Below the pieces are notes generated by a model, which worked only from the letters and a program-made list of their open reading frames with translations, was not told the DNA's origin and searched no databases. Below, in pieces: positions 5,585-58,584 of a stretch of 64,000 nt of DNA (position 1 is its first letter; every line of letters begins with the position of its first letter). Made by a program: the position numbers and the translations under genes. The stretch lies in NCBI GenBank assembly GCA_014905635.1, contig CM026547.1, positions 2,170,001-2,234,000 on the forward strand. Direction: 5' to 3'. The DNA comes from Scenedesmus sp. PABB004. Taxonomy: Eukaryota.

Positions 5585-5790
5585 GACGGCACCCCGCCTC
5601 AACCGGCACCCGCCTCAACCGACGCCCATGCCGCGCGGGGCAGCCCGGCTTGTCCCGATGCTGTGCCCAGGCGGATGGCCGGGGCGGGCGCCCGGGGCGC
5701 GCAGCGGGCACCCAGGGACGGTGCCGGTACCGAGTGGCAGCGCCCGGGCTGGGGCGGGTTGGGGAAAAGGGCAACGGGGAGCGCGAGGGG

Positions 5791-5906
5791 CGGCCGTCCT
5801 TGTGGTCCTTCTGCCTGTTCAGGAACCAGTCGGGGATCTTGTACTGGCGCGGGTTGGCCACGATCGTCATCAGCTGCTCCAGCTCCTCAGCGGACAGCTC
5901 GGCGCG
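5791..5906 (-). pseudogene. RPS18: Isolated internal fragment of 40S ribosomal protein S18 (uS13)
   Basis: Translates [39 protein letters not shown], the recognisable middle of eukaryotic RPS18. No other RPS18 exons are visible on either side. Confidence 0.85.
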
Positions 5907-6089: not shown

Positions 6090-6336
6090 CCAACACCGAC
6101 CATGGGCATCCTCTGATCGCCGGCCGCCTGAAACAGGCCACAGCGGCGCGAGGCATGACGGTTTGGGACCGGCCCGTCGGTCGGTGCCCCGCGAGGGGTC
6201 CGCCCCACCCGGAACGGGTGACAAGGCGAGAAACGCACGCGCACACGCCTGACCTAACCTGGCAACACAACACAACAGCAAGAGGCCTTTTAACGTCCTG
6301 CCCAGGACGGAGAGCGCAGCGCACCGCACACGCCGC
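6090..6336 (-). ncRNA. Candidate Fanzor omegaRNA scaffold
   Basis: Directly 3' of the Fanzor stop and less GC-rich than its surroundings. Complementary pairs: hairpins at 6294-6309, 6206-6220 and 6187-6198; 6094-6101/6179-6186 (8 bp) enclosing 6157-6161/6174-6178, 6118-6122/6144-6148 and 6126-6138. Function is inferred from position only. Confidence 0.45.
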
Positions 6337-8143
6337 TCACGCCCGGGGGTCCACCGCGGCGGCGGCCGCCTGCCGGAACGCGCCGGCGAGGCGCGCGCCG
6401 CCCGCCGTGCCGCGGCCGCCGCGCAGCAACTCGTGCAGCGTGAGCGCGCAGATGTTGCGCGCCGCGTTGTCGTCGCGCGGCGCGACGACCGTGCACCCGG
6501 GGCACTGCACCAGACCATAGATGCCCCGCAGCTTCTCCACGCGCGCCCCGCAGACAGAGCAGGTGACGCTCGTGCGGTGCTCGTCCATGAGCACCGCGGC
6601 GACGCGCCGGCGCGCATAATAAGTGCGCAGCAGCGCCAGCAGCGCCTGCCGCGGCGGCCCCGGCCCCGAGATGCAGCCCCCCATGCCCAGGCTGGCGTCC
6701 CCGATGCCCAGCACCACCGCGGGCAGGTCGGCGGGCAGGCGCGCGTGCTGCCGGACGCGCCCGCGCACAAAGACCCGGCCGTATGCAGTCAACTGAATCA
6801 CGGCATGCAGCGCGCGCTGCTTCAGCCCGTGCTTCCGCAGCCGCCACGCACACTCTGCACGGCACGCAAGCAAGCTACATGCGAATGCATTGTCCAACAC
6901 ATGATGCACCCGGCCGTTGCGCCACGCCCCGGCGGCGGCGACGCTCGTGCCCGAGTAGGCAGGCACGCGGTTCAGGCAGGCATGCACGCAGTCGCCGCCG
7001 CCGGGCGGGCGGCGGTCGTACCGCCCCGGCCGCCCCGGCCGCCCCTGCTGCCACAGGCGGTGCCGCTCGATCCCGCGCGAGTCGCGGTGCGCGGCGGTCT
7101 TTATTCGGATGATGCGCTCCGCCTCGTAGCGGCGGCCGTGGTCGCCGCGGTGGCGCGGCGCGTTGGGGCAGCGCCGCTGCGCGATGCGGCGGTGCGCGAC
7201 GCGCGTGCAGCCCGGGCCCTGCCGCCAAGTCGCGGCACAAACCATGCGGGCCCGGCCCGGGTCGACTCCGACGACGCGCACGCCCGCGTGCACGGCCGCG
7301 GCCGCGCCGCGCAGCGCGTGCCCCGGCGGCAGGCCCTCCACGCCGCGCAGCTCGCACGGGTCGAGCGGCAGCGCGTCGAGCGCCGCCTCGTCGGCCACGC
7401 CGTGCGGCGCCAGCGCGTCACAGAGCAGCCGCCGCGCTGCCGCCGCGCCCGCGCGGTGCTCTGCCGCGCGCTGCGCCGCCTTGGCGGCGCGCGACTGCTG
7501 GCCGCGGGGCGGGGCGGGGTCGGTGGCGCCCTCAACGCGCACGCGCACGTGCAGCGCCGCCAAATCAAACGTCACCGAGCCCGCGAAGCGCGTGTTGGCG
7601 TGCAGCACGCCGCGCGCGCGCCCGGGGCGCCGGCCAAAATGAAAACATTCATCCCAAACGGGATCGTAGCCCCCGCCCTCTTGGGTCGGCGGTGGCGGCG
7701 GCGGCGGCGGCTGGCCTGCCGGCTGGCCCCCCGCGGGCGCCTTCGCCTGGGGCGCGCGCAGCGCAACATCCAGCGCCTGCATGCCCGAGGTGGACAGGTG
7801 CAGGTGCTGGGTGCCGTACTTGGGCACCGGCGCCAGCGTGAAGGCGCGCCGCTTGGGCAGCGCCACGCGCGCGGCGTGCCGCGAGCGCAGGCCGCGCAGC
7901 ACCTTGCACGCGCCCGTGACCGCGACGAGCGCGTCGGGGTGCTGCCCCGCGCCGCCGGCGCGCTGCGGCGGCTGCCCGCCGCCGCTGCGGCCGCCGGGCG
8001 GCGCCGGCGCCGCGCCGGCCGCGGTCGCCGCAGCCAGCACCGCCTCGAGCGTCGCGCACACCGCGTGGCGCCAGCCGGCCGAGACATCGCGACGCAGCGC
8101 CGCGACAGCCGCCGCCGCCTCCTCGGGCGTGCGCGGCGCGGGC

Positions 8144-8179
<36 letters not shown>

Positions 8180-11100
8180 TGCTGGGCCGGCGGCGCCGGC
8201 GCAGCGCGACCCTGCGCGGCCGCTGCGGCGGCCAGGTGGCCGCGCGCGGCCGCCAGGTGGCCGCGCGCTGCCGCCAGTCGGGCGCCGCAGTCGCCCAGCA
8301 GCCGCGCGCCCTGGTCGCGCGCGGCGCGCGCGGCGTCCGCCGTGCGGCGGGCCGCGTCCGCGTCGGGCGCCGCCGCCGCGCCGTGCGGTCGCGCGAAGCG
8401 CCGCTGGTGCTGCACGAGCGCCGCGTCGCGCTCGTGGTGCTGCGCCATGGCAGCCTGCCACTCCGCCTCCACGGCTGCGAGGTCGGCCCCCACCGTCGCG
8501 TCGCCGGCGGCGGTCAGCGCGGCCAGCGCCAGCCGCAGCCGCTCCGCGGCCGCGGCCGGCAGCGCCGCGCCCGGCCCTGGCCCGGCGCCGCGCCCGGCGC
8601 GGCGCCTTGCCCCCGGGCGCGGAGCAGCCGCGCCTCCGCGACGGCCAGCCGGCGCCGGAGCGCCGCCGCGTGCGCGTCCTTGCGCTGCAGGCGGCGCAGC
8701 CGGTTGCGCGCGTGGTCGGGCGGGCCCGTCATACCTCCCTGGACCGCAGCGCGGCTGGCGACCTCCCGCTGCAGGTCCTTGAGGGGTTCCTTGCGCAGAC
8801 GCACGGCCGCCTCGCTGGCATCCACGGCGGCGCGCAGGCGCTGCACCGCCGCCTCGAGCTTGCCCAGCTCGCGCGCCCGCTGCAGCTCGCGCAGGCGCGG
8901 CTCCTGGGCGCTGGCGTCCAGCAGCTTGGGGGGCGCCGGCGGACGCTGGCCGCGGCTGCGGCTGCTGCTGCTGCTGCCGCTGCCGCTGCGCCCGCTGCTG
9001 CCGTCCATCGCCTCTGCCAGCGACTCGACGGCCGCCGCGAGCGCGCCGGCCGACGCCGGCTCCGGGGCCGCCCCGAGCGACGCGGCGCGGCGCAGCATCG
9101 CCTCCAGCGCCGGCCGCGCCGCCGCGCCCTGCTGGGCTGCCAGCGAGTCCGCGAGCCGCGGCGCGCAGGCAGCAAACATGTGCTGCTGGCCGAGCATGAC
9201 GACAAAGTCGCGCGCGACGCGGCGCGCCATGGCGTCGGCGTCGCCCTCCCGGTACGCCAGGCCCTCGAGCTGCCGGGCCAGCGCCGCGCGCCAGGCGTCG
9301 TAGGCCGCGTCGTGCTGCTGCCGCGCCGCCGCGCCCGCGCCGTGCGCCAGCGGCTCCGGCGGCTGCGGCACGAGCGGCGCGCCCCCTGCCTGCGCGCCCG
9401 CGTCCGGCGCGCGCGGCATGCCGCTCCGCGCCCAGTCGAGCACGCGGCCGTGCTTGCCGGCCGCCTCGTCCGACTCCCAGCGCTGCAGGCCGGGCGTCGC
9501 CTGCGCCCCTGCCGCCTGGCGCGGGCGCGCGCGCCGCCTCGCCGTCCGCCGCCGGGAAGGGCTGCTCCAGGTGCAGGCGCATCCGCGCGAGCATGTCGCG
9601 CATCATCGCCATGGCCAGCCGCAGCCGGCCGGCGTCCTGGCCGTCGCCCGCCGCCGCGGGCACCACGCCCTCGCCCGGCTGCAGCACGCCCTGGCGCTCC
9701 CAGAGCAGCGGCGACGCGCTGTACAGCAGCGCCGCGCCGCCGGCGATGAGGCAGTCGCGCGCGGCGCGGCTGGGCGTGCCGGCGCAGCCCGCGGCAAACC
9801 ACGCCTGCAGGGCGGCGGCGTCGAGCGCCTTCTCCAGGCGCTCGCCGTCGGCGAGGTGGAGCTGCAGGTTGGTGTTGTACAGCTCCGCGAGAGGGTTGAC
9901 GAGGTCGTGGTGCAGGCGGCCTGTGACCCAGGCCGGCAGGGGCACGCGCTGCAGCTCGTTGACGCCGCAGGCCTGCTCCAGCGCATGGCGCAGGTCGCTG
10001 GACAGGCCGCCGCCAACGCGCCGCCAGTTGCCCTGGCTAAAAAAGTTGATTAGGTCGTACACGAGCGGCGCGCCGCCGCACGCGGCCTGCAGGTAGCAGG
10101 CGCACGCGGGCGGCGGCGGCGCCGGCTGCTGGGCCTGCTGCGCTGCAGGCGGGGGCTGGGGCTGCTGCGGGCCCTGCTCCTGCGCCGCCGGCTGCGGCGG
10201 CGGCTGGCGCGTGTCCAGCCCGTACAGCCGGCTGCGCAGCGGGCGGGCGGGCGGGCGGGCGGCGCGACTCGGCGGGCGGCGCGGAGGAGGGGGCGCAAAG
10301 CGCGCGGGCGCGCCCCACCCGCGCGCGCGCGCACCTCGCCCCATACACGAGCGCCACGTGGTGCGCGTCGCGGCCGAGGATGCCCAGCCGGCTGTAGGCG
10401 CACACGAGCGCCTCGAGGTAGGGGACCACCTCTGGCTTGCGCACGGCGCCGCGCAGCGCGCAGACGCGCACGCCTGAGGCGGGCGGGCGGGCGGGCGGGC
10501 GAGGGCAGGTGAGGGGGGCGCGGGCAGGGCGCGGGGCGGCGGCGGCGCTGGGTGCCGAGAGAGCGGCCCGGCGGCCCGGCAGCGCGCCGCGCGGCGGGCA
10601 CACTCACGCATGCCAGAGCCGGCCGCTGCCTTTTTGGCCTGCTCGGTCCGTTTCTTGCTGCGCTTGGTGAAGTGGCGCGGCAGCGCCTGCTGCTGCTGCC
10701 GCCCTGCCTTGTCGCCCGCCTCGGCCGCCGCTGCACCGCGCGCGGGCGAGGCACGCCCCGACGCCTCGTCGGCGCCGCGCGAGCGCTTGCGGCGGCCGCG
10801 CGGCGCCGCCGCCGCGCCGCCGCGCGAGCGCGCGCGGCCGCCGCCGCGCGAGGGCGTGCGGCCGCCGCGCGTCGCGGCCTTGGCGCTGCCGCGCGAGCGC
10901 GCGCGGCCGCGGCCGCGGCTGCGGCGCTGCGCCGCGTCGGCGCCACGCGCGCGCTTCGCCGCCGGGCCGCCCTCCTCCTCATCGCTGCTGGCCGCGGCGC
11001 TGCCGGCGGACCAGCCGACGCTGGCGGCGGGCGCCGAGAGCACCGCCGCCATCGCCGCCGCGCGGGCGGCCTCGCCGCGGGCCTGCGCGTGGCGGCGCAG

Positions 11101-13386
11101 CGCCTCCCAGTCGGCGCCGCTCACGGGCTGCGCCGCGCGCTCGGCGGGGTCGATGCCGCGCGCGGGCGGGGGGCCCGGGGTGCCCCCGCCGCTGCGCGCG
11201 CCGCTCGTGCCGCCGCCGGTGCTGCTGCCGGCGCTGCCGCCGGCGCTGTCGCTGCGCGCGCGGCTCGTGCCGCCGCCGCTGACGCTGCCACTGCGCGCGC
11301 CGCTCTGGCCGCTCTGGCCGCCGCCGCTGGCGCCGCCGCCGCCGCGCGCGTGCTTGGCGTCGTAGCTCGCGCGCTGCTTGGAGCGCCGCACGTCCTCGTC
11401 GGACGTCCCGGCCGCCTCGGCGCGCGCCTTGGACGCGTCGAGCTCCGCGCGGCGCTCCACCGGCTTCTCCCACGCCGCGTCGATGGCGGCGGCGGTCGCG
11501 GCGCGGCGGCGGCGGCGGCTGCTGCTGCTGCTGCTGTCGCTGTTGCTGGTGCCCAGCGGCGCCGCGGCGCCGTTGCCCTTGCCGCGGCGCTCCTTGCGCC
11601 CGAGCTGCTGCGGCTGCAGCGGCTGCAGCGGCTGCAGCGGCTGCAGCGGCTGCCGCGGCTGGCTCGCCGCCGGGCCGCCCTCCTCGTCGCTGCTGTCCGC
11701 GGCGAGCTCCGCGGCGCGCGGCGCCGCCTCCTGCAGCCGCTGCTGCGCCGGCGCGCCGCGCGGCGGCTCGCGCACCTGCTGCAGCTCCGCCGGCGCGCCG
11801 CGCGGCGGCGGCCTGCGTGCCGGCACCACCGCCGCCCAGTGGTTGAGCGGCAGCGGGTTTTGCGCCCCGAGCACGGGCGCAAACTCCGGCGCCGCGGCGG
11901 CCGGCAGCGCGAGCGCCACGAGCCGGTTGCCCTCGCTCGCCTGGAACGCGTCGCCCTGCTCCTGCAGGGCGATGAGGAGCGTGTCAAGGCTGTAGACGTC
12001 GGTCAGGAAGACCAAGTCTGCCAGGCGCATGCACAGCGCCCGCAGCTCAGCCTCGCTGGGGTAGCCCCCGGCCTCCAGGTCTCGCGCCAGCTCCTCCACG
12101 GCGTCCGCGCGGGCCACGCCGAGCACATCGCGCCAGGGCACGCCGCTCGGGTGCAGCTGGTCGCTCAGGCCCAGCTCGCGGATGAGCTCCACCGTCCGCG
12201 ACCGCAGCTCGCCCGCCTGCTCGTCCAACATGTCCAGCACGTCGGGTTCGAAACTGCGCAGGTCGTGGGTCGGCTCCTGCAGCTCCGCCGCCTCCAGCAT
12301 GCGCAGCACGGCAATCGCAATGAGGGAGAACCCGCACAGGCCGTTGGCGCGGCCGTGCACGAGCGCGTACCCCTTGTCCTCCAGCTCGCGCTTCAGCAGC
12401 GCGAGCTGCGCGCCGGTGCACGTGCCCGCCGGCGCCATGAGCTTCGGCGGCGCCCGCGCCGGCGCGCCGCGCGGCGCGGCCGCCGGCGGCTGCCGCTGCT
12501 GCGGCGCCACGGGCGGCGGCGGCGCCGGCGCCGGCGCGCCGCGCGGCGCGGCCGCCGGCGGCTGCCGCTGCTGCGGCGCCACGGGCGGCGGCGCCGCCGG
12601 CGCCGGCACCGGCGCGTCGTCCGGCCGCAGCGCCGGGCTGCCGCCGCCCCAGCCGCTCCCGCTGACGCTGCCGCTGCCGCTGCTGCTGCTGCTGGGCCTG
12701 GGGCTGCCCCTGCCGCCACCGCCGAGCGCGGCTGCGCGGCCAGGGCCCGGCCCGCGCGCGGCGGGCAGCGCGCCGCCGCCGCCGCCGCCGCCGCCGCCGG
12801 GGCGGCGCGCGCGCGCCACGGTGCGCCACTCGGCCGCCGCGTCGCTGGGCTGCCGCCCCTGCTGCGGCGGCGGCTGCGGCGGCTGCGGCGGGCTGCGGCT
12901 GCGGCTGCGCCCGCCGCACGGGGCAGGCGCGGCCGCCGGCGGCTGCCGCTGCAGCGGCGGCGGCACGGGCGGCGGCGGCGCCGGCGCCGGCGCGCCGCGC
13001 GGCGCGGCCGCCGGCGGCTGCCGCTGCTGCGGCGCCACGGGCGGCGGCGGCGCCGGCGCCGGCACCGGCGCGTCGTCCGGCCGCGGCGCCGGGCTGCCGC
13101 CGCGCCAGCCGCTCCCGCTGCCGCTCCCGCTGCCGCTCCCGCTGCTGCTGCTGGGCCCGGGGCTGCCCCTGCCGCCACCGCCGAGCGCGGCTGCGCGGCC
13201 AGGGCCCGGCCCGCGCGCGGCGGGCAGCGCGCCGCCGCCGCCGCCGCCGCCGCCGCCGGGGGGGCGGCGCGCGCGCGCCACGGTGCGCCACGGCGGCGAC
13301 GCGTCGCTGGGTTGCTGCCCCTGCTGCGGCGGCGGCTGCGGCGGGCTGCGGCTGCGGCTGCGCCCGCCGCACGGGGCGGGCACGCC

Positions 13387-13419
<33 letters not shown>

Positions 13420-14000
13420 AGGGTCGCCAAGCGTAAACACCGCCGCCTGCTCATCGGGCGTGAACCCGATGTCCCAAAACCCCGGCGGGGTCTCGGGAGG
13501 CGCGTGCTGGGCGCGGTGCCGCGACGCGGCCTGCAGCGCGGCCGGGGCCAGCGCGTGCGTGCACGGGAGCAGCATCATGGTGCCCGGCGCCGGCGCGCCC
13601 CAGGTGGAGAGGGCGCCGTAGAAGTCGCGGCACTGAGCACAGTCGTGCCCCGGCAGGTCCTGGCGCGCCGGCCCGCGCACCACCTCCTGGTACGCGAAGC
13701 CGCCGGCAGCGGGCGGCTGCCGCGGCGCCGACGCGCCCGCGCGCTGCTGCTGCTGCTGGTGCTGGTGCTGCTGCTGGTGCTGGTGCTGGTGCTGCTGCTG
13801 CGGCGGCGGCGGCTGCAGCCAGTCCTCCTCCTGCCCGCGATACACGCGGCGCCAGCCGGCGCCCGCCGGCGGCGGGCGCGGCTGCGCCGGCGCCGCCGGC
13901 TGCGGCGCGGGCTGCGGCGCGCCCCAGTTCAGCACCGGCAGCGCGAAAAGGCCGGCGGGCGCCACGGGGTGCGCGGGATCGATCCGCCTGAGCTGTCCAT
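6337..14000 (-). CDS. Fanzor1 (TnpB-like RuvC nuclease) with long N-terminal extension carrying CtIP/Sae2-like and OTU-like domains; spliced, with apparent frameshifts
   Basis: C-terminal motifs: [27 protein letters not shown] (RuvC-I D, 7263-7261), VVLGIGD, MDEHRTS (RuvC-II E, 6582-6580), CSVC...CPGC zinc finger and RDDNAARNI (RuvC-III D, 6474-6472). GT-AG introns at 10607-10474 and 10334-10232. The start is uncertain; the ATG at 14000 needs a frameshift. Confidence 0.85.
12445..13375 (-). repeat. Coding tandem duplication (~450 bp period) in the Fanzor N-terminal extension
   Basis: Two copies of [13 protein letters not shown]...[10 protein letters not shown]...[18 protein letters not shown]...PDDAPVPAP, plus shorter [20 protein letters not shown] subrepeats. 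Confidence 0.85.
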
Positions 14001-14334
14001 CGCGGCGCGCGCCGGCTTGGGCTGCCGGTAGCGCGCGCGCCCCAGTCGCCCGATCGACCGGCTGTGCATCGCGGAAGGCTCTCGCCGGGCGCGGGTGACC
14101 GCTGCGTGCCTCCGACCGTGAACGATCTGGTGCCCAAGCGCCGCGCACCGGATTGTGCAGACGGTCGCGGCGTGCCGCCTGAACCGCCGAGCAGCCCCGG
14201 CCCGGCTGGTGCCCACGCTCATGCCCGTCGCCCTGGCCAGACCCGTGGCCGCCGCCCCGCAGCCGAGCGCCCGCCCAGGCGCGCCCCGCACCGCCGCTGC
14301 CCGCGCGCCCCGCTCCGCGCGAACGCGCGCCGCC

Positions 14335-16605
14335 ATGGCCGAGGCCAACGGCTCCGGCGATGCGCCGGTGCGCGGCGGGCCTGACGACGCCGGCGCGCGG
14401 CCGGCGCGGCGGCGGCAACCGCAGCAGCAGCGGCGCCGGCGGCAACCGCCCGCGCCGCCGGCCGCGCGCAGGTCTTCCTGATCTTCGGCCGCTCCGGCTG
14501 GATCGGCGGCCTGGTGGGCGACCTGCTGAAGCAGCAGGGCGCCAAGTGGGAGTACGCCACGGCGCGCCTGGAGGACCGCACGGCGATCATCGCCGACATT
14601 GAGCGCGTGAGCCGCGGCGGCGGCGCGGCGGCGCGGCAGCGAGCGCGGCGCGGCAGCGAGCGCGGCGCGGCAGCGAGCGCGGCGCGGCAGCGAGCGCGGC
14701 GGCGGCGGCCCGCCGCCCCCGCGGCGCCGAGCCGCGCCGCGCGCGCGGCTGCCCCGCACGCAGGTCAAGCCCACGCACGTGCTCAACGCGGCGGGCCTCA
14801 CCGGCCGGCCCAACGTCGACTGGTGCGAGACCCACAAGGTGCGGCGCGTGCTGCCCGGCGCGCGCGGCGCGCGGCGCGCGGCTGCGCCGGCGCGGCAGCA
14901 GCGGCGGCGGCCGCGGCGGCGGCGCGCCCGCCCACACACGGCCTGCGCGCGCCGCGCGCGCGCAGGTCGAGACCATCCGCTCCAACGTCATCGGCTGCCT
15001 GAACCTCGCCGACGTGTGCGCGTCGCGCGGGCTGCACATGACCTACTACGGCACCGGCTGCATCTTCCACTACGACGAGCACTTCCCCCAGGGCAGCGGC
15101 AAGGGCTTCAAGGAGAGCGACAAGCCCAACTTCACCGGCAGCTACTACTCCTACACCAAGGCGCGCGGCCAGGGCCAGGGCCAGGGCTCGGCGCGGCGCG
15201 GCGCGGCGGGCTGGGGGAGGGCACCGCGCGCAGCGCCGCGCGGGGCGGGGCGGAGCGGGGCGGGCGATTGCGACGCCGCGACGCGTCCGCGCCGCGTCGC
15301 CGCCGCGTCCGCGCGGGCGCAGGCGATGGTTGAGAGCCTGCTGAAGGAGTACCCCAACGTACTCACGCTGCGCGTGCGCATGCCGATCGTGGCCGACCTC
15401 ACCTACGAGCGCAACTTCATCACCAAGATCATCAAGTACGAAAAGGTGCGACCCCCTGCCTGCAGGGGGGGGGGGGGGGGGCTAAGGGGGGGCACTCCGG
15501 CACGCGCCGGGGGAGGAGGAGGCTGGGAGCGTGCGGCGCACAGCCGCGCGCGCGGGGCGCGGCCGCGGCGTCGCGCTGCGGCGGTGGGCGAGCAGCCGGC
15601 GGCAGCGGCGCGCGGGCGCGCGCGCGGGCGCGCGCGCGGGCCGAGCGCCGCCGGCGCCGCGGCAGGTGGTGGACATCCCCAACTCGATGACCGTCCTGCC
15701 CGAGCTGCTGCCGCTGTCGATCGAGATGGTGCGCGCGCCGCGCCGCGCCGCCCGCGCGCCCCCGCTCCCGCGCACGCAGCGGCGCGCGCGCCACTTCAGA
15801 CTTTGAGCCCCGCGCCCCGCCGCCCCTGCCCCGCGCCTCCCCCTCCCTTCTGCCCCTGCCCCCAGGCCAAGCGCAAGCTCACGGGCATCATGAACTTCAC
15901 TAACCCCGGCGTCGTCAGCCACAACGAGGCGCGGCGCCGCGGCGCCCCGCGCACGCCCGCGCATGCCCGCCGCCCGCGCACGCCCGCCGCCCGCGCCCGC
16001 GCACGCCCCGCACCGCGCACGCGCCGCGCACCAGCGCACCAGCGCCCGCGCACGCCCGCGCGCCGCGCCCGAGCGCGCCCCCCCCCCCCCCCCCCCCGGC
16101 CCCGGCCGGCCGGCGCGTGCGCAGATCCTTGAGCTGTACAAGCAGTACATCGACCCCGAGTTCACCTGGTCCAACTTCAGCCTTGAGGAGCAGGCCAAGG
16201 TCATCGTCGCGCCGCGCAGCAACAACCTGCTCGACACACAGCGCGTGAGACCCACCGCGGCGCAGCCGCGGCGCACGCGGCGCCGCGGCTGCCCGGCGCG
16301 GCGCGGCGAATTTTGTTGCCTGGCGCGGCGCGCGGCGCGCGGCCCAGCGTGCGCCGCCGGCGCCGCGCCGCAGATCTCTGGCGAGTTCCCGGAGCTGCTG
16401 CCCATCCGCGAGTCGCTCATCAAGTACGTGTTCGAGCCCAACGCCGCAAAGGTGCGCGCGGGGTCGGCTGCGCCGCCGGGGGCGGCGAGGCGCGCGGGGC
16501 GACGCGGGCCGGGCGCGCCACGCCCCGACCCGCCGCGCCGCGCCGCCGCCGCGCCCGCAGAAGGACGAGGTGTGCGCCGCCGTGCGCGCGATGCGCGGCC
16601 GCTGA
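14335..16605 (+). CDS. Nucleotide-rhamnose synthase 3,5-epimerase/4-reductase (NRS/ER, UER1-like), multi-exon
   Basis: FLIFGRSGWIGG, VKPTHVLNAAGLTGRPNVDWCETHK, YYGTGCIF, PNFTGSYYSYTKAMVE (YxxxK), LRVRMPI, VVDIPNSMTVL, NFTNPGVVSHNEIL, VIVAPRSNN. TGA at 16603-16605. Confidence 0.93.
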
Positions 16606-39255: not shown

Positions 39256-39626
39256 CACAGGCGCGCCGGCGTGGGCCGGACGCGCGCTCGCCCGGCCGCC
39301 CCAGGCTGGCGGCTCGGCGCTGGAGCAGCGCCTGCTCGAGCGGCGCGGCCACCAGCCGCGACGCAGGGCGTGGAGGCGCGACGCGGGCGACGTGCGTGCG
39401 TCTGCCCAGGGAAGCGCCTGGCGGAGGCGGGGCGGGCGCGGGCGCGACCCTGGGGCGCGTCGAGACGCCCGAGCCCGCGCCACCCGCCCGCCCAGGTCGC
39501 GCGTGCTCGCCCCGTCTCCCGCGCGCCGCGGTGGACGGCGCACTTTGAAGACGACGTTGAATCCCCAGGCGCCCGGCGTGGCCGACGCCGACGCCGCGCG
39601 CCGCTGCTGCTGCCGCTGCCGGCGTG

Positions 39627-41206
39627 CGCCCGCCAGCGCGAGCTGACCGCCGGCCCAGCCGCCGCTGGGCACGCTCTCGACGCTGCCCACCCGGCAGAGA
39701 CCAAAGTCGGTGTCGGCGCTGCCGCCGCTGCCCGCGCCGGCGCTGCCCGAGGCGTCGGCCCGCAGCGCCAAGCGCGCCCGCGGCGACGCCGCCGCGCCGG
39801 CGGCCGGGCACGGCGGCCGCGCGAGCCACGCCAGCGGCCTGCCCAGGCGCAGGGCTCAGCCGGTCAGGAGCATCGGCAGCACCACGCTGCGCGTGCCCAG
39901 CAGCTTGCCGCCGAGGTCTGGCACCTCGTCGCAGTCTACCAGCGGGCCAACGGCGCCGTCGGCGGCCACGGTCGCCGGGTAGGTCAGCAGGTGCCCGCGC
40001 GGCAACGGCAGTACGTCCGGGCCAGCAAACACGCGCCAGTTGGCGTCCCCGATCGCGCGCAGCGAGCACATGCACTCCAGGCTGCTGGGGTCGTCGTGCT
40101 CCAGGTCCAGCGCCTGCGCGCGCCGGCGGCACCGCGGGGGCGTCGGCGGCGTCGGCAGGGGCGGCGCCCGCGGGTCGCGCGCGCCCGCGGGTCACGCACC
40201 CCAGCGCGCCCCAGCCTCACCCCGATGTGCTCGCGCCACAGCGCGCGCCGGAAGCCCGCGACCTGCCCCCGCGGCAGCGCGCCGCCCGTGCTCGCGAGCG
40301 TGTGGCCCGCCTGGAAGGCGCCGATGCTGATCTCGCTGTCGCGCGCGCCGTCGAGGGAGCGCTGGTTGATGTTAGCGCTGCCCACCACCACGTATTCGTC
40401 GTCAACAATCATCAGCTTGCTGCGACGACGCGGCGGCGGCAGCACGCGGCGGCGGCGGCGGCGGCAAGGGTGGCGGCAGGGGTGGGCGGACGCGGCGGCA
40501 GGGCAGGGGTGGGGCGGCTCGCCGGTCACGCGGCGCGGCGCGCGCCCTGCCCTGTGGATGGACGCGTCCACGACCTTGCCCTTGCCCACGCTCAGCCCCG
40601 CCTCGTACGCGCCCTCGCGGCTGCGCGGGAAGCCCTCGGCCGAGTCTGCGCGGCCGGCGCGGCAGCGCAGCGGCGTGCATAAGCGGCGGCGCGGCGGCAG
40701 CCGTGGCCGCGCGCGCGGTCGCGCGGCGCGGGTCGGGTCACCAGAGTCGATGCTCCGGAGCACCTGCACGCTCCACTCCTCGCCGGGCGGCAGGCCCGGC
40801 ACGGCGAGCGCGGGCTGGTGCGGGGCCTTGATGGCACCTTGAGGTTGATGTGCCCGCGGTCCATGATCACGCTGCGCACCATGGCGGCCTTGGACTGCAG
40901 CGGGGGGAGGGCAGGGCCCGACGCGGCGGCCGCGATGGGCGCCCGCTGCTCGCGGCGGGCCGGCGGCGGCCTGCCCTCCCCGCTCACGCGGCCGCCGCGC
41001 CCACGCCGCACCGTGAAGACCTCAAACCCTGGCGGGAGCGCCACGTCGCCGTGGTCGCCGATGTGGCGCATCTTGGCGCGGTGGCGGTGCGGGACCAGCG
41101 CTCCAGGAAGTTGAGGGCCACGTCACACGCCGCCGGGCCTTCCAGGCGCGCGTGAATGTCGTGCCGCGGCTCGTGCGTGCACGCGCGCGTGGCGTCGAGT
41201 GCTGCG
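39627..41206 (-). pseudogene. Inverted, internally deleted duplicate of the 3' half of PLD plus part of the next gene (source ~46260-49590)
   Basis: Reverse complement matches [51 protein letters not shown] and the PLD C-terminus, then 49362-49590. It has deletions and frameshifts and retains introns. Confidence 0.9.
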
Positions 41207-41488
41207 ACGCGCGTGCGGGTCGGCGGCGACGCCTCCAGCGCATGGCGCGGCGGCGCACGGCACAGGGAGGGCGCAGCGGCGCGGCCGGCTGCCGCCAGGC
41301 TGCGCACGCGTTCGGCGGCGGCGGCGGTGCTGGGGTGCTGGACAACAAAGCAGTGGCAGCAGCCCCGGGGGCGCAGAAAAGAGCCGCCAAAAGCGCGAAG
41401 GCGAGCAGGCGGCGTTGTTCTTCGAACGTGCGCGCAGCGGCGCCCGCTCAGCTCTCCACAGGGCGTCCTTCTTCTCGCGTGAGCTGTC

Positions 41489-44409: not shown

Positions 44410-47014
44410 ATGGTGCTGCTCCACGGCGTGCTGGACGTCACGATCCGTGAGGCCCGCCACCTGCCGACGTCGCTCGCCAACGCCGCGGGCGGCTGCCTCA
44501 AGTCGGCGCTGTGCTGCGCGGGCGGCCCCATGCTGGTGGGCAGCGTGGACCCGTACGTCGTGCTCAGCGTCGGCGGCACGCGGCGCCTGCGCTCCTCGGT
44601 CGTGCAGGGCAGCGTCGCTCCGGTGTGGGGCGAGCGCGCCGAGGTGTTCGTCGCCGACGAGGCGGAGGAGCTGACCCTGGAGGTCAAGGTGGGCAGCGGC
44701 GGGCCAGCGGTCCACGCGCCGCCTGCCGCCAGGTCGCGCCAGCGCCACCGCCGCGCCCGCCGCAGGATGCGGACCTGGTGGGCGCGGAGAGCCTCGGCCA
44801 GGCGGCCCTGCCGGTCGCCGCGCTCTTGGGCGGGCAGGCCGTGGACCGCTGGCTGCCGCTCAGCGACGCCGCCGGCCGGCCCGTGGGCGCGGCGGACGAC
44901 GCCAGCAAGGCGTTCCAGCAGGCGACGCTGCACGTGACGCTGCGCTTCACCCCGGTCGCACAGCTCGAGGTGCGGCGCGCGCGCGCGCAGCCGCCTCGTG
45001 CAGGCGGCAACGCCTGCCCCCAACGCCTGCCCTGCACCCGCCTCTGCGCTCGCTCGCCCGACCCGCCGCCGCACTCACCGCCCGCCAGGCGGCCGGCGCG
45101 GGCGAGGTGCCGCACACATACTTCCCGCTGCGCGGCGGCAACCGCGTGACGCTATACCACGACGCCGTGTGCACGCCGGGGCCGGTGCCGGGCGTGGAGG
45201 CGAGCGGCGGGCTGTACAGCGAGTCGAGCTGCTGGGACGACCTCTACGCCGCCATACGCGACGCGCAGCGGTGCGCAGCGCTCCTACAGGGCCGCGCTCG
45301 GCGCTCGCGCCGCCGCTCCGCCCCGCCCCGCCGCCGCCCGAGCCCCGCCCGCCCGCCCGGCCACCGCCGCCGTCGCCGCCGCCGGCGCTGCCGGCGCGTG
45401 CGGCCAGGTTCATCTGGATCACCGGCTGGAGCGTGTGGACCTCCACGCGGCTGCAGCGCGCGCCCGACCGCGGCGCCGACTCGCCGACGCTCGGCGAGCT
45501 GCTGATCGCCAAGGCGGCGGCGGGCGTGAACGTGCTGCTGCTGGTGCGGGGCAGGGTCCGCCGCCGCAGCACGTGCCGCGCGGCGGCGGCGGCCTGCCCC
45601 AACCCTTGGCTGCGCGGCGCCGCGCGCCAGGTCTGGGACGACACGAGCAACAACCTCGGCCTGCACAGCGGCGTGATGGCGACACACGACCAGGAGACGC
45701 ACGCATACTTCAAGGACACCGCCGTGACCTGCGTGCTTGTCCCCCGCCAGGGCTCGCTTGAGGCGACCGTGCTGCAGGCGCGGCCACGCGCGCGGCGCGC
45801 TTCCAGCCGGGCGCGCGCGTGCTGGGGGGCACGGGCCGCCGCCGGGCAACTGCTGCGTCGGCGCGCACGCCGCGCCCAGCGCCTCGCCGCGGGCCGCCGC
45901 CGCGTGGCCGCCGCCGCCGCTGCCGCCGCCGCGCGCGCAGAAGTTCAGCGCCGGCAACCTCTTCACGCACCACCAGAAGACGGTCGTGCTCGACGCCCCG
46001 CACCCGCCGGAGCACCCCGCGGCGCCGGGCGGCGCGCCGCGCCGCGCGGCGCCGCGCCGCATCGTCGCGTTTGTCGGTGGCCTCGACCTCTGCGACGGCC
46101 GCTACGACTCCCCCGCGCACCCGCTCTTCTCGACGTGCGGCCCCGGCGGCGCGCACAGCGAGGATTTTCACCAGGCCTGCGTGTCGCGTGAGCGGCGCCC
46201 GCACGCGCCGCGGGCCAGGCGCGCGCGCGCCGCGGGCGCGCGCCCACCCGCGCGCGCGCCGCAGCGCTCGACGCCACGCGCGCGTGCCCGCGCGAGCCGT
46301 GGCACGACATCCACGCGCGCCTGGAGGGCCCGGCGGCGTGTGACGTGGCCCTCAACTTCCTGGAGCGCTGGTCGAAGCAGGTCCCACACCGCCACCGCGC
46401 CAAGATGCGCCACATCGGCGACCACGGCGACGTGGCGCTCCCGCCAGGGTTTGAGGTCTTCACGGTGCGGCGTGGGCGCGGCGGCCGCGTGGGCGGGGAG
46501 GACAGGCCGCCGCCAGCAGCCCGCCGCCAGCGGGGGGCGCTCACCGCGCGGCCGCCGCGTCGGGCGGTGTGCCCTCCCCCGCTGCAGTCCAAGGCTGCCA
46601 TGGTGCGCAGCGTGATCATGGACCGCGGGCACATCAACCTCAAGGTCAGTGCCATCAAGGCCCCGCACCAGCCCGCGCTCGCCGTGCCGGGCCTGCCGCC
46701 CGGCGAGGAGTGGAGCGTGCAGGTGCTCCGGAGCATCGATTCTGGTGCGCCGACCCGCGCCGCGCCGCGCCGCAGGGCGCGAGCGCGCGCGCGACCGCGG
46801 CCGCCGCCGCCGACGCGCGCCGCCGCGCTGCCCCGCGCGCAGACTCGGCGGAGGGCTTCCCGCGCAGCCGCGAGGGCGCGTACGAGGCGGGGCTGAGCGT
46901 GGGCAAGGGCAAGGTCGTGGACGCGTCCATCCACCGCGCCCTCGTGCGCCTCGTGCGCGGCGCGGCCCGCTTCCTCTACATAGAGAACCAGTACTTCCTC
47001 GGCAGCAGGCGCGC

Positions 47015-47049
<35 letters not shown>

Positions 47050-47226
47050 CTTGCCCACGCCGCGCGCCGCGCCGCGCTGCGCAGGGCAGGGCGCGCGCCG
47101 CGCCGCGCCGAGGCGCCCGCGTGCCGCGTCCGCGCCGCGCAGCCACCTGTGGGCCAGCGACCACGACGCCGCGACGCACCTCGTGCCCGCCGAGATCGCG
47201 CTCAAGATCTGCGCCAAGATCAAGGC

Positions 47227-47257
<31 letters not shown>

Positions 47258-47584
47258 ACGCACGGCGCGCGGCTCGCCTCGGCGCGCAGCCCGCGCGCAG
47301 CCCGCAAGCGCCCGGCCCCGACGCCGCACTCGGCGCTTGGCGCGCCCCCTGCGGGGCGGGACGCTCCCAGGCGGGCGAGCCGTTCCGGGCTTACGTGGTG
47401 CAGCCGATGTACCCGGAGGGCGTGCCCACGAGCGCCAGCGTGCAGGCCATCCTGCACTTTCAAGCGGCCACGCGCGAGATGATGTACCGGTGCGCCCCCA
47501 CCGGAGGGGGCGGCCAGCCAGGGGCCCGCGGCCCGCGGCGTGGCGCACGGGCACGGTGTGGGGGTCCCTGGGCTGCCACGCGCC

Positions 47585-47620
<36 letters not shown>

Positions 47621-48739
47621 GGCTTATCGCGGACGCCCTCCGCGAGGTGGGGCTGCAGGGCGCCGCGCACCCGACCGATTACCTCCAGTTCTTCTGCCTC
47701 GGCACGCGCGACCCCATCGGCACCGACCCCAGCGCGGTGCGCCGCCCGCCGCCTGCGGCGGCGGGGCGGCACAGCCGCGCGCCCGCACACACACGCCCGC
47801 GCCGAGCGGCCCGCCGCGCCGCCGCCGCGCCGCCGCCGCGCCGCCGCAGTGCCCCGCGCCGGCCGGCGCCGAGCCGTGCTCGGCCGTGCCGCCGGGCGCC
47901 GCGCAGCTGCCGCCGCCCGAGCCGGGCAGCGCCCAGGCTCGCGCCGCCGCGGCGCGGCGGTTCATGATCTATGTGCACAGGTGTGACCCGGGCGCGCCAG
48001 CGCCCGCCCCACAGGGGGCCCCGGCCAGGCGCGCCGCCAGCTGCCGCGGACGCAGCGCGGCCGGGGCCGGGCGCGCGCCGCCGCCCATCCCCTGCCCTGC
48101 CGCCGCGTCCGCCCACCCCTGCCGCCACCCTTGCCGCCGCCGCCGCCGCGTGCTGCCGCCGCCGCGTCATCGCAGCAAGCTGATGATCGTTGACGACGAG
48201 TACGTGGTGGTGGGCAGCGCCAACATCAACCAGCGCTCCCTCGACGGCGCGCGCGACAGCGAGATCAGCGTCGGCGCCTTCCAGGCGGGCCACACGCTCG
48301 CGAGCACAGGCGGCGCGCTGCCGCGGGGGCAGGTCGCGGGCTTCCGGCGCGCGCTGTGGCGCGAGCACATCGGGGTGAGGCTGGGGCGCGCTGGGGTGCG
48401 TGACCCGCGGGCGCGCGCGACCCGCGGGCGCCGCCCCTGCCGACGGCGCCGACGCCCCCGCGGTGCCGCCGGCGCGCGCAGGCGCTGGGCCCGGAGCACG
48501 ACGACCCCAGCAGCCTGGAGTGCATGCGCTCGCTGCGCGCGATCGGGGACGCCAACTGGCGCGTGTTTGCTGGCCCGGACGTGCAGCCGCTGCCGCGCGG
48601 GCACCTGCTAACCTACCCGGCGACCGTGGCCGCCGACGGCGCCGTCGGCCCGCTGGTAGATTGCGACGAGGTGCCAGACCTTGGCGGCAAGCTGCTGGGC
48701 ACGCGCAGCGTGGTGCTGCCGACGCTCCTGACCGGCTGA
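44410..48739 (+). CDS. C2-domain phospholipase D (plant PLD alpha/beta/delta-like), multi-exon
   Basis: [17 protein letters not shown]...DPYV (C2 domain), [35 protein letters not shown] (HKD1), [29 protein letters not shown] (HKD2), [12 protein letters not shown] at 48737-48739. Confidence 0.95.
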
Positions 48740-49184
48740 GCGCGGCGCGGCGGCCCGGCAACCGCCTCGCCCGCTGCCCGGCGCCGCTCGTCCACCCACG
48801 TCCCACACGTGTGTGTGGCAGCAGCAGGGCCGCCGGCTCAGCCCGATCCAAGCTCGCCGCCCAGCGAGGCCGAGGGCCGGGCGCGCGCCGCTGCACCTCA
48901 CCGGCGGAGGCGGTGCCGCCGAAGCGGCGGCGCGAGCGGCCGCGCCAGTGAGCGCGCGGCGCTATTCCGCGCATGTTCGGGCAGGCGGCGGGCGCGCGCG
49001 CGCTGCCGACGGCCCGCGAGGCGCCATCCGTTGCGCCCGCGCGCGCATCCGTGGGCGCAGAAAAACCCCTCGCCGTCGCGCTGCGGGCTCACGGCGGGTC
49101 CCCAGCGGTGCGGAGGCTCCTCTCCGGCGCCGCGCGCGAGCTGGGGCCCGCCCAGCAGCGCCCTGCGCCGCCCGCCAGGCCGCG

Positions 49185-50554
49185 ATGGAGCCTCACGCGC
49201 CCGGCGCGCCCTGCCCCCTGATCGGCCCGGACGCCGGCGACGACGACGATCTGGACCTGCCGCGCCTGGAGGAGCTGCTCGAGGACCTCCCGCGCGCCGG
49301 CAACGACCTGGACGCCGCGCTCGGCGGCGCGCGCGATCGCGCCGCGCCGCCGGCCTGCGACGCCCTGGGCCTGGGCGGGCCGCTGGCGTGGCTCGCCCGG
49401 CCGCCGTGCCCGGCCGCCGGCGCGGCGGCGTCGCCGCGGGCGCGCGCGGCGCTGCGGGCGGACGCCTCGGGCAGCGCCGGCGCGGGCAGCGGCGGCAGCG
49501 CCGACACCGACTTTGGTCTCTGCCGGGCGGGCAGCGTCGAGAGCGTGCCCAGCGGCGGCTGGGCCGGCGGTCAGCTCGCGCTCGCGGGCGGGACGCCGCT
49601 GCCGCTGGGCATGTCGATGCCGCTGGCAGCGGGTGGGCTGCTGAAGCACCTGCAGGTGCTTCAGCAGCTGCAGCTGCAGCACCTGCAGCTGCGCGCGGCA
49701 CAGGCGCAGCTGCAGTGCCCTAGCACCCTGGCGCCGGCGGCGCACGCCGCCGGCCACGCGAGCGGCACCAGCGAGGGCCTGTGCCCGGACTGCGCCGAGC
49801 TGAAGCGCCGCGGCGACGAGGTGCTGGCGCACTTCAGTGCCGGGCGCGGCGCGGCGCGGAACGCGGAGAGCTTTCAGGAGATGGCCGCCATCCTCATGAA
49901 AGGCCTCGCGTGCATGCGGTCGCCGCGCTGCCTTGTGTGTGAGCAGCTGCCCGCCACGGCGAGCAAGACATGGTGGCGGCTCTCGCTCGCCAAGGCGCGC
50001 ACCGCCAAGGCGGGCCAGCAGCGCGCGGGCACGGGCACCGCCTGCCCGCGCAACTTCAACTTCAAAGTCAACAGCCTGCACACGCTGCCCAACAGCGCGG
50101 AGCTGCAGCAGCTCGCGGACGGCGGCGACGCGGGCGGCGGGGGTCAGGCGCGCCAGGCGTACGCCATCAAGTCCACAGGTGCGCGCGCGGCGGGCGCGGC
50201 GGGTGCCCAAGCCGCGCGGCGCACGGCGCGCGCGCTGGTCAGCGCCGCCCGGGCGCTCGGCGGCCTCGCACGCGCCGCTCAGCCGCGCCCGCCGCGTTCG
50301 CCGCGCTCCGCGCCCCGGGGCCTGCAGACAAGAGCCTGGGTGCGCTGATCGTCGTGCGGCGCACGGAGCCGGGGGCGCCGCCGAGCGAGGCGTGGGCGCT
50401 GCGGTTCGAGAGTCACAAGCAGAAGTGGCGTGGCTGGCAGCTGGAGGCGACGCCACACGCGTTCGTCTGGTGCGACCCCCTGAGCGGCGGGGCGGCCAAG
50501 CGCGCGGCCGAGGCGAGCACGCGCGGCGGGGGGTCCAAGGTGCGCCGCAAGTGA
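49185..50554 (+). CDS. Hypothetical protein with Cys motifs (one predicted intron ~50179-50327)
   Basis: ATG at 49185; coding-like CPDCAELK...CMRSPRCLVCEQ...WWRLSLAK; a GT-AG splice joins to DKSLGALIVV...WRGWQLEA...KVRRK-TGA. Confidence 0.55.
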
Positions 50555-55164: not shown

Positions 55165-55803
55165 GCCGGAGCTGCCGCGCGGCGGCTGACGGTGGTGGCG
55201 GCGGCAGACGGCGGCAGCGCCCCCACCGCTGCGGCGAGGCGGCGCGGCTGGGGACGCCAGCGCTGGGCGGCGCTGGTACCAGCGCTGGTAGGCTCTGGTA
55301 GCCCGAGGGACGGGAGGCGCAGCCAGGGGCCTACCCGCGCCCACCAGCGCTTTACCCGGGCCTACCAGGGGCTGCGGTAAACTTTCCAGGGGCTGCGGTA
55401 AACTTTCCCGAGCTTACCCGCGCTACCCGGGCCCCCACTGGTGGCCCCGGGCGCGGGCAGTCCACCGCTGTCGGTGGCGCTGGCGCGGGGGGTTTTGTGC
55501 CGCGGCGGCGCCGCCTGCCTGGCCCAGCGAGCCGCTGGCGGGGGGGGGGGGGGGGTGACCCGCGCTCCCGGCTCGAGCGGACTGGGCGGGGCTCCTTGCG
55601 AGTGTCGGCGGGCTCTCCCGCGCAAATCGACCGTTCCGCGCCTGCGGCCCCGCGCGCGGGCGCCCGCGGGCGCCGCGCCGGCGCGGCCCAAGAGCTCGGT
55701 GGACCGGCGCGACTCCGACCGCGCCCGGCCAGGCCGCGCCGTGAGCGGCGGCGCCGCGCAGCAGCGCGGCCGCGCGCGAGCGGGCAGGCCCCGCTGGTGG
55801 CCC
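55165..55803 (+). repeat. Long direct repeat, copy 1
   Basis: Near-identical to 57963-58584; contains a tandem 21-mer CCAGGGGCTGCGGTAAACTTT x2 (55365-55406). Confidence 0.92.
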
Positions 55804-57685: not shown

Positions 57686-57987
57686 CGGCGCTCGCCCCCC
57701 GCGCGGCCTCGATGACGGCCGTCGTCGACGGCGCCCGTGCACGTTCGCCGGGCTGGTGGTCCTGCGCGCTGGGCGTGCTGCCGCTCCACCAGGGAGCCGC
57801 GAGCAGCAGCGGCGGCGGTGGCAGCGACGCGCCGCAAGCTGCGCCGCCAGGCGGCACGCGCACGGCGAGCCGGCTCGGGCGCGCGCCATCCACGCTGGAG
57901 CAGCAGCACGCCGTGCTCTCGCGCGCGCTGCGCACCGCTTCCGCGCCGAGCCTGGCCGCCCCGCCGGAGCTGCCGCGCGGCGGCTGA
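55832..57987 (+). CDS. Hypothetical protein, paralog A (predicted intron 57031-57125)
   Basis: Coding-like ORF from ATG 55832; a GT-AG intron joins ...AVPDR to LCELDERAADW.... The stop lies inside repeat copy 2. Shares blocks with 58643-60592. Confidence 0.55.
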
Positions 57988-58584
57988 CGGTGGTGGCGGC
58001 GGCAGACGGCGGCAGCGCCCCCACCGCTGCGGCGAGGCGGCGCGGCTGCGGGCGCCAGCGCTGGGCGGCGCTGGTAGGCTCTGGTAGCCCGAGGGACGGG
58101 AGGCGCAGCCAGGGGCCTACCCGCGCCCACCAGCGCTTTACCCGGGCCTACCAGGGGCTGCGGTAAACTTTCCAGGGGCTGCGGTAAACTTTCCCGAGCT
58201 TACCCGCGCTACCCGGGCCCCCACTGGTGGCCCCGGGCGCGGGCAGTCCACCGCTGTCGGTGGCGCTGGCGCGGGGGGTTTTGTGCCGCGGCGGCGCCGC
58301 CTGCCTGGCCCAGCGAGCCGCTGGCGGGGGGGGGGGTGACCCGCGCTCCCGGCTCGAGCGGACTGGGCGGGGCTCCTTGCGAGTGTCGGCGGGCTCTCCC
58401 GCGCAAATCGACCGTTCCGCGCCTGCGGCCCCGCGCGCGGGCGCCCGCGGGCGCCGCGCCGGCGCGGCCCAAGAGCTCGGTGGACCGGCGCGACTCCGAC
58501 CGCGCCCGGCCAGGCCGCGCCGTGAGCGGCGCCGCCGCGCAGCAGCGCGGCCGCGCGCGAGCGGGCAGGCCCCGCCGGTGGCCC
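57963..58584 (+). repeat. Long direct repeat, copy 2
   Basis: Near-identical to 55165-55803 apart from a few substitutions, a 12-bp indel and G-run length; tandem 21-mer at 58151-58192. Confidence 0.92.

Follow-up and report, generated by a model that had tools for sequence, protein, structure and literature searches.

A CtIP/Sae2 C-terminal domain upstream of a TnpB/Fanzor-type gene in Scenedesmus sp. PABB004: a candidate chimeric gene in DNA of about 80% G+C

The question raised by the locus described here is whether a C-terminal domain of the repair factor CtIP/Sae2 and a TnpB/Fanzor-type nuclease, which follow one another on the minus strand, are parts of one chimeric gene. The locus was analyzed in a window of 64,000 nucleotides (nt), meaning the whole stretch of DNA under study, which was taken from contig CM026547.1 of Scenedesmus sp. 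PABB004 (assembly GCA_014905635.1, positions 2,170,001 to 2,234,000 of the forward strand); all coordinates given below are positions in this window. An earlier note, made from the letters of the window, had described a CtIP/Sae2 signature at the front of a Fanzor open reading frame (ORF). The genome of Scenedesmus sp. PABB004 is reported to comprise 39.8 Mb with 78.5% G+C and 1.31% repeats (PMC12571836), and the G+C content of the window is 75-84% throughout (approximately 80%), with compact DNA of eukaryotic nuclear character and many short exons. The answer favored here, at a probability of roughly 0.4, is a predicted chimeric gene that would encode a CtIP domain, a duplicated linker, a globular domain designated domain X, and a stretch resembling a nuclear localization signal (NLS), and that would continue through two introns and a small exon into a TnpB/Fanzor-type nuclease.

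All 341 stop-to-stop ORFs of at least 120 amino acids in the window, totaling 102,585 residues, were scanned with Pfam. DNA of about 80% G+C is poor in stop codons, and with 341 such ORFs present, open frames alone mean little here. Coding signal was measured as the number of A/T letters at codon positions 1, 2, and 3 of each segment, which is given below in that order in brackets, and depletion at the third position was taken to indicate coding. Conservation was scored in an alignment of 28 SAE2 sequences, and the search for metagenome loci was performed with an alignment of seven.

Identity and position of the SAE2/CtIP domain

The core of the domain is located at 13462..13698 on the minus strand and is supported by Pfam, phmmer, conserved columns, and codon periodicity. 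It runs from EVVR through CxxC (13641-13630), RHR (13521-13513), and a Thr-Pro (TP) site to GFW..GF; in the 2749-codon frame to which it belongs, it extends from residue F297 (first letter at 13698) to F375 (last letter at 13462). The peptide that the earlier note had aligned with the CtIP/COM1 consensus is an exact minus-strand reading, with CxxC and RHR at the coordinates claimed. A comparison with the Pfam SAE2 profile (PF08573), which the note had proposed as a check, gave 50.7 bits (E 4.4e-13, cut-off 19.8) for a 199-amino-acid piece (13402-13998) and 30.4 bits for the whole frame of 2749 amino acids, and the family was found once among the ORFs of the window. When the 96-amino-acid core was compared with 1.84 billion representative proteins using phmmer, 711 were matched at E<=1e-3 and 20 at E<=1e-10; the same core had no match among PDB sequences. 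All six invariant columns of the alignment are kept in the window (two Arg, both Cys of CxxC, the His of RHR, and the Trp of GFW), as are all seven columns conserved at 90% or more. The latter include the Thr-Pro of the putative CDK-type site. The A/T counts over the domain are [20,32,4] (p 2.6e-5).

Thirty of the best relatives were looked up; of the seven that carry an organism name, six derive from chlorophytes (Tetraselmis twice, Dunaliella, Symbiochloris, Bryopsis, and Apatococcus) and one from an apicomplexan. Several relatives bear the name 'DNA endonuclease activator Ctp1 C-terminal domain-containing protein', and the best identity to the nearest of them in the representative library is 57-62%. 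The window thus shares with the CtIP/Sae2/Ctp1/COM1 family the profile match, CxxC, RHR, Thr-Pro, and GFW..GF. Judged by its sequence, 13462-13698 is a true and intact SAE2/CtIP C-terminal domain of the chlorophyte type, and the match is far beyond chance.

The position of the domain in its reading frame is where the window departs from this family. In each of the 150 phmmer relatives listed, the protein ends no more than 175 residues after the matched part. In addition, 39 metagenome loci with SAE2 relatives were fetched, and the domain was found again by tblastn in 20 of them. At 14 of these the match reaches the GFW..GF end, and an in-frame stop follows within 0-30 codons at all 14; the remaining six, which have the first half of the domain only, were left out of the stop count. 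The C-terminal location in CtIP given in the earlier note is borne out by both sets. In the relatives, then, the domain ends the protein, whereas in the window it stands close to the N-terminal end, and the exon that encodes it goes on for more than 900 further codons. Frame 0 stays open after the domain for another 2362 codons, until the stop at 6339, and no minus-strand frame has a stop within 13453-12395.

The domain sits approximately 60-70 residues from the start of this very long exon (exon A) and, whichever protein start is assumed, no farther than about 70-210 residues from it. It is preceded by a P/Q/H-rich coding leader (13699..13950, minus strand; A/T [7,37,3] over 13950-13700, p 2.7e-10), and frame-0 codon periodicity begins only at about 13950. 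The room upstream of the domain, as far as the ATG (14335) of an oppositely oriented neighboring gene, is approximately 640 nt. Given this room and the composition of the leader, the domain should lie near the N-terminus of the translated product, and a long coiled-coil region ahead of it is improbable; unlike the members of the CtIP family, the gene of the window would have no place for a long N-terminal oligomerization region. The earlier note had called the domain N-terminal and free of a visible coiled coil. The first part stands, and for the second the probable absence of a coiled coil was judged from the P/Q/H-rich composition of the leader.

Coding link from the domain to the Fanzor-type part

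Frame-0 codon periodicity is unbroken from approximately 13950 to 10608, and third-position G+C stays at 0.93-1.00 over these 3.3 kb. Behind the SAE2 domain, exon A contains a disordered P/G/S/R-rich linker (12473..13417, minus strand), which was recognized as a tandem duplication by Tandem Repeats Finder and by its periodicity. The repeat has a period of 456 nt (152 codons) with 2.1 copies and 92% matches, and the A/T counts of the linker are [45,51,12] (p 4.8e-6). The copies differ by indels of 9, 3, 3, and 3 nt and by a compensated 2/2 pair, all of which preserve the frame.

The linker is followed by domain X (11800..12441, minus strand), a predicted globular domain that carries a Cys motif close to the start and an Asn-His-Trp motif close to the end and that has the strongest codon periodicity of the exon A segments ([45,123,12], p 3e-24). 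No family match was obtained for it in Pfam, NCBIfam, or PDB, and no homologues were found among longer proteins, metagenome contigs, or viral contigs. By eye only, its Cys and His motifs appear to resemble those of OTU proteases. A Pfam OTU match was absent at E<=10, none was present in PDB, and the Atlas search gave a weak lead (rank 9, score 0.90) to a viral cluster in which 34% of the members carry OTU. The AlphaFold2 model of domain X had a pLDDT of 37.9 and was unusable. The last part of exon A (10608..11799, minus strand) is a disordered, acidic, S/G/R-rich stretch that ends in a basic NLS-like cluster and has A/T counts of [83,100,11] (p 1e-15). Disordered N-terminal regions with an NLS ahead of the core have been reported in Fanzors (PMC10530073), and the long disordered basic region ahead of the core is a feature that the gene of the window would share with them.

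Before the exon is followed further, an artefact of composition has to be considered, in which the SAE2 match would be real and its downstream link would be stop-poor DNA of 80% G+C, with 13460-12440 non-coding. Open frames are indeed the rule in this window, as the 341 ORFs of at least 120 amino acids indicate; over part of its length the 2749-codon frame can be shown to differ from the coding frame (see below), and trinucleotide-like repeats can mimic a three-base periodicity. Against this, frame 0 contains 0 stops and frames 1 and 2 contain 15 each over the span compared, the phase of the periodicity stays fixed across non-repetitive sequence and both copies of the repeat, and no separate stop closes the SAE2 part of the frame. 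With these observations an artefact of this kind is considered very improbable.

From exon A the coding signal passes on through two predicted introns. Intron 1 (10474..10607, minus strand; 134 nt) has the form GTGAGT...CAG and a flat A/T distribution ([5,7,4]), and its GTGAGT donor at 10607 comes directly after ...ATG C. Exon B (10335..10473, minus strand; 139 nt) is coded in frame 2 ([8,24,2], p 1.1e-5) and contains no Met, which means that it depends on a connection to upstream coding sequence. Intron 2 (10232..10334, minus strand; 103 nt) has the form GTGCGC...GCGCAG and is likewise flat ([2,5,4]). Exon C (9520..10231, minus strand) returns to frame 0 ([43,110,10], p 1.8e-21) and would encode the N-terminal globular part of the Fanzor-type protein, for which no family match was obtained. 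Exons A, B, and C share one frame only once both predicted introns are removed. Both introns follow the local splice consensus, and their sites and lengths agree with those of the eight introns inferred in the neighboring gene. Coding signal is continuous over the three exons and the splice sites are consistent with this continuity, which makes a single coding sequence that runs from the SAE2 domain into the N-terminal part of the Fanzor-type protein, predicted from these signals, somewhat more probable than its absence. The phrase 'front of the Fanzor ORF' in the earlier note can be kept in so far as the domain is tied to the Fanzor-type part by coding signal and consensus splice sites. It fails for the 2749-codon ORF, which is not one true coding frame, since the block 9182-8574 is coded in frame 1.

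The neighboring gene used for this comparison (14335-16445, plus strand) appears epimerase/reductase-like from weak Epimerase and RmlD matches, with the rest recognized by eye, and it has very small exons. Its eight inferred introns have GTGCGC or GTGAG donors, two apparent GC donors, and GCGCAG acceptors, and the three that were measured are 104, 127, and 157 nt long. The ATG of this gene overlaps a CCATGG palindrome, in which the minus strand likewise reads ATG.

The middle, helical part of the Fanzor-type protein is coded in frame 1 at 8574..9487 on the minus strand ([42,117,14], p 4e-22). The C-terminal part (6340..8571, minus strand; stop codon at 6337-6339) contains RuvC-like motifs and a zinc-ribbon TNB domain (6451-6621) and was identified with Pfam, PDB, and a database gene model, P0161, which also matches the middle part. 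Among the last 320 residues, Pfam Cas12f1-like_TNB (PF07282) scored 39.8 bits against a cut-off of 26.3; NCBIfam guided_TnpB scored 24 bits, and the matches to the TnpB models are confined to roughly the last 50 residues and do not reach the cut-offs. The best PDB sequence matches were the chains of TnpB-like L79, LaTranC, Cas12m, and TnpB/OrfB, and the alignment to the TnpB-like L79 chain takes in the CxxC..CxxC and RD.NAA.NI motifs (RuvC-III-type). RuvC-I and RuvC-II-like motifs (GxDxG-like and DE..TS) were seen by eye only. An AlphaFold2 model of the last 507 amino acids was unusable (pLDDT 37.4). A word-based search with the Fanzor part (753 amino acids) among proteins of 414-1318 amino acids returned nothing, and a comparison with viral contigs returned one marginal TnpB-like locus (L001). 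By its motifs and profile matches, the downstream gene is of the TnpB/Fanzor type.

P0161 is a gene model of 3130 amino acids from Scenedesmus sp. PABB004 that apparently merges several genes. Its parts are CreA-like, the middle and C-terminal parts of a Fanzor, Maf1, mannose-1-phosphate guanylyltransferase, and a large repeat protein, so that the model itself appears to be a chimeric prediction. The window is identical to it at 202 of 204 residues between 9182 and 8574 (P0161 residues 206-409) and at 635 of 713 residues between 8505 and 6424. The CreA-like part upstream and the Maf1 and guanylyltransferase parts downstream have no window match at 60% identity or more, and these families were not found by Pfam among the ORFs of the window. 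The neighbors in P0161 therefore differ from those in the window, which, as far as the gene model can be relied on, implies at least two loci with this Fanzor in the lineage.

These data also bear on an explanation by two transcription units. Here the SAE2 domain, the linker, and domain X would form a short CtIP gene of the host with a long C-terminal extension, perhaps with a mobile unit that landed 3' of it, and the Fanzor would be expressed from an internal promoter with the ATG at 10611-10609 and a first exon of one codon. That ATG lies directly before the donor at 10607, and the neighboring gene also appears to have a tiny first coding exon. The probable second locus, where the gene model contains the Fanzor without an SAE2 domain, speaks for two units as well, as do the ordinary host genes that flank the locus and the existence of short SAE2-only relatives (for example of 99-122 amino acids), which may be fragments. 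Against two units, a separate CtIP stop codon is absent, as compared with a stop within 30 codons at 14 of 14 comparable loci. Frame 0 is free of stops from the domain to 6339, and over the first 1 kb the same holds for the other frames. A transcript started upstream and using the same splice sites would consequently read into the Fanzor. Two separate units are regarded as unlikely.

Frame breaks, other copies, and the integrity of the gene

A number of observations weigh against the chimeric reading. An uninterrupted Fanzor reading frame is not present in this copy, which has two breaks. The first is a change from frame 0 to frame 1 within approximately 9525-9487, in a G/C run and without room for an intron. 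The second (approximately 8575-8570) coincides with a G/C run near 8572; P0161 has a single frame there, from which the window is shifted by one base. As assembled, the frame-1 reading would stop at 8516, short of the RuvC part. With one base gained or lost at each of the two sites, a single protein of roughly 2500 residues would result. An in-frame ATG upstream of the SAE2 domain is absent in frame 0; the first frame-0 Met lies inside the domain (Met-Met) and the next one just before domain X. The mismatches between the linker copies are even across codon positions ([4,5,3]) and give no sign of purifying selection on the linker. In P0161 the Fanzor is located between different genes, and the precomputed Pfam list of this model has no SAE2. 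Domain X and the Fanzor parts had no match in any of the 39 SAE2 metagenome loci, and a near-identical SAE2 domain was not found in the representative protein library, where the best identity is 62%. A search of RNA runs with 6300-14700 gave no RNA match and returned metagenome DNA contigs only, with word shares of 0.28 or less. Finally, no sign of a guide RNA was detected 3' of the stop codon, where the flank folds no better than shuffled sequences (z = +0.73) and has no Rfam match.

The missing start codon may have a local explanation. The upstream ATGs at 14336, 14222, 14069, and 14000 each belong to frame 1, where a stop follows at 13931, and consensus-like acceptors at 13911, 13899, and 13881 could take a tiny first exon, an arrangement in which the neighboring gene seems alike. 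The candidates for an alternative start are the Met-Met in the domain, the Met before domain X, and the ATG at 10611 before intron 1.

The two frame breaks are either assembly errors or real frameshifts that reflect decay. None of the listed contig pieces from four metagenome runs covers the break sites; these contigs are 121-896 nt long, and none joins the domains. They differ from the window at 1 position in 301 nt in the SAE2 region and at 1 in 609-679 nt in domain X, and they are more divergent in the C-terminal part of the Fanzor (11-16 differences in 603-896 nt). Eleven of the 18 differences listed for this last part are synonymous, and four of the seven amino acid changes give the residue found in P0161, a pattern that points to purifying selection on the C-terminal part of the Fanzor.

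An orphan, exon-like piece of ribosomal protein S13/S18 is located at 5790-5903 on the minus strand, approximately 430 nt downstream of the Fanzor stop. It scored 37.9 bits with Pfam over profile positions 45-80 of 128 and is followed by an intron-like pyrimidine tract. Further S13/S18 exons were not found in the window by three-frame reading and a motif scan, and a ribosomal protein S18 gene after the Fanzor stop was rejected, as this one orphan piece is all that exists of it.

A decaying or never-functional chimera is a further explanation. A Fanzor unit would have taken up pieces of host genes, among them a 3' piece of CtIP, or such pieces would have been pasted in during break repair, and the CtIP domain would be a passenger. 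The two changes of frame fit this explanation, as they depart both from P0161 and from any intron model, and so do the missing in-frame start codon ahead of the domain and the even distribution of differences between the linker copies. The S13/S18 piece indicates that stray pieces of host genes do sit at the locus, which gives the passenger idea some weight. Decay is less easily reconciled with the conserved columns of the SAE2 domain, all 13 of which are intact, with a third-position G+C of 0.93-1.00 kept through 3.3 kb, or with indels between the linker copies that keep the frame in every case. Near-identical pieces of SAE2 and domain X occur in metagenome contigs of other runs, and the differences in the C-terminal part of the Fanzor are mostly synonymous (11 of 18). 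Both breaks, moreover, fall in G/C runs, where assembly errors are common. Decay is accordingly rated as rather doubtful, and the predicted chimeric gene remains the preferred reading. Its origin could lie in the capture of an exon by the element, in line with the origin from the host gene suggested in the earlier note, or in a fusion at a host CtIP locus.

A second copy of the Fanzor part was not found within the window. A search for transposon ends gave terminal inverted repeats at chance level only, consisting of GC-rich pairs, and no Rfam family reached its gathering score anywhere in the window. The Pfam scan of both strands identified pieces of kinases, malic enzyme, Obg GTPase, OHCU decarboxylase/HIUase, phospholipase D, a Cas1p-type acyltransferase, and others. 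An inverted duplication (39620-41277 and 46192-49598) has 88-96% identity over blocks of 237-753 nt and carries phospholipase D active-site motifs on opposite strands. A direct repeat of approximately 640 nt (55165-55803 and 57963-58584; 96.7% identity) overlaps ORFs without a Pfam match. TGTAA, the poly(A) signal of green algae, has a single site on the plus strand and none on the minus strand of the 64 kb, where about three per strand are expected from composition, and it is uninformative here.

Proposed function and comparison with known systems

If the chimeric gene is expressed as one transcript and one protein, the following mechanism can be proposed. The Fanzor part would cut DNA at a site specified by a guide. 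The tethered CtIP domain, phosphorylated at the conserved Thr-Pro, would then engage MRE11-RAD50 at that break, and end resection would start. The break would subsequently be repaired by homologous recombination from the copy that bears the element, which would result in homing or retention, and not by end joining. Recruitment or activation of MRE11-RAD50 by the domain at breaks made by the Fanzor part, with a resulting preference for recombination, is a speculative proposal that follows the logic of bacterial TnpB homing and of engineered Cas9-CtIP fusions, and its probability is rated as low. The same low expectation applies to the wider idea of a transposon-type, RNA-guided nuclease with its own repair module (the CtIP domain, perhaps together with a deubiquitinase-like domain), which would turn its breaks toward homologous recombination for homing or retention.

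Compared with known Fanzors, the gene of the window shares the zinc-ribbon TNB domain with the RuvC-III-type motif, the nuclear and intron-bearing setting, and, as far as P0161 indicates, a probable presence at more than one locus of the lineage. It differs by a predicted N-terminal extension of approximately 1300 residues that contains folded domains (SAE2 and domain X). In the window no guide RNA, transposon ends, or transposase was found, and the frame is broken twice.

TnpB has been described as a homing nuclease that acts via break-stimulated recombination (10.1101/2023.11.20.567912; PMC10055086). The logic proposed for homing or retention of bacterial TnpB elements is the one suggested above, in which the empty site is cleaved by the guided nuclease encoded in the element and the element is then restored through recombination (PMC10055086; 10.1101/2023.11.20.567912). 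In the bacterial system recombination is supplied by the host, and no domain of a repair factor is tethered to the nuclease; for the gene of the window, such homing or retention is a proposal.

A further parallel is an engineered one. A Cas9-CtIP fusion has been reported to raise homology-directed repair (PMC5859065), and it resembles the predicted chimera in that an RNA-guided nuclease is joined to a part of CtIP with the rationale of steering repair to homologous recombination. This fusion is artificial, and its active fragment is the N-terminal one (HE) and not the C-terminal Sae2-like domain (PMC5859065), a difference that counts against the reading favored here. In full-text literature searches, no paper with both Fanzor and Sae2 was returned, Fanzor and CtIP occurred together only in one review of engineered editors, and no fusion of this kind was found.

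The locus bears on the role of Fanzors for the elements that carry them in eukaryotic cells and on the way in which the breaks made by a nuclease avoid error-prone end joining there. If the chimeric gene is real, it would be a natural counterpart of the engineered nuclease-CtIP fusions. It would provide a testable hypothesis, namely that resection factors are recruited at the cut, and a design idea for editors that favor homology-directed repair. If the CtIP domain is instead a decayed passenger, the locus would still be a clear example of pieces of a host repair gene carried at a Fanzor locus in a very compact algal genome of 80% G+C.

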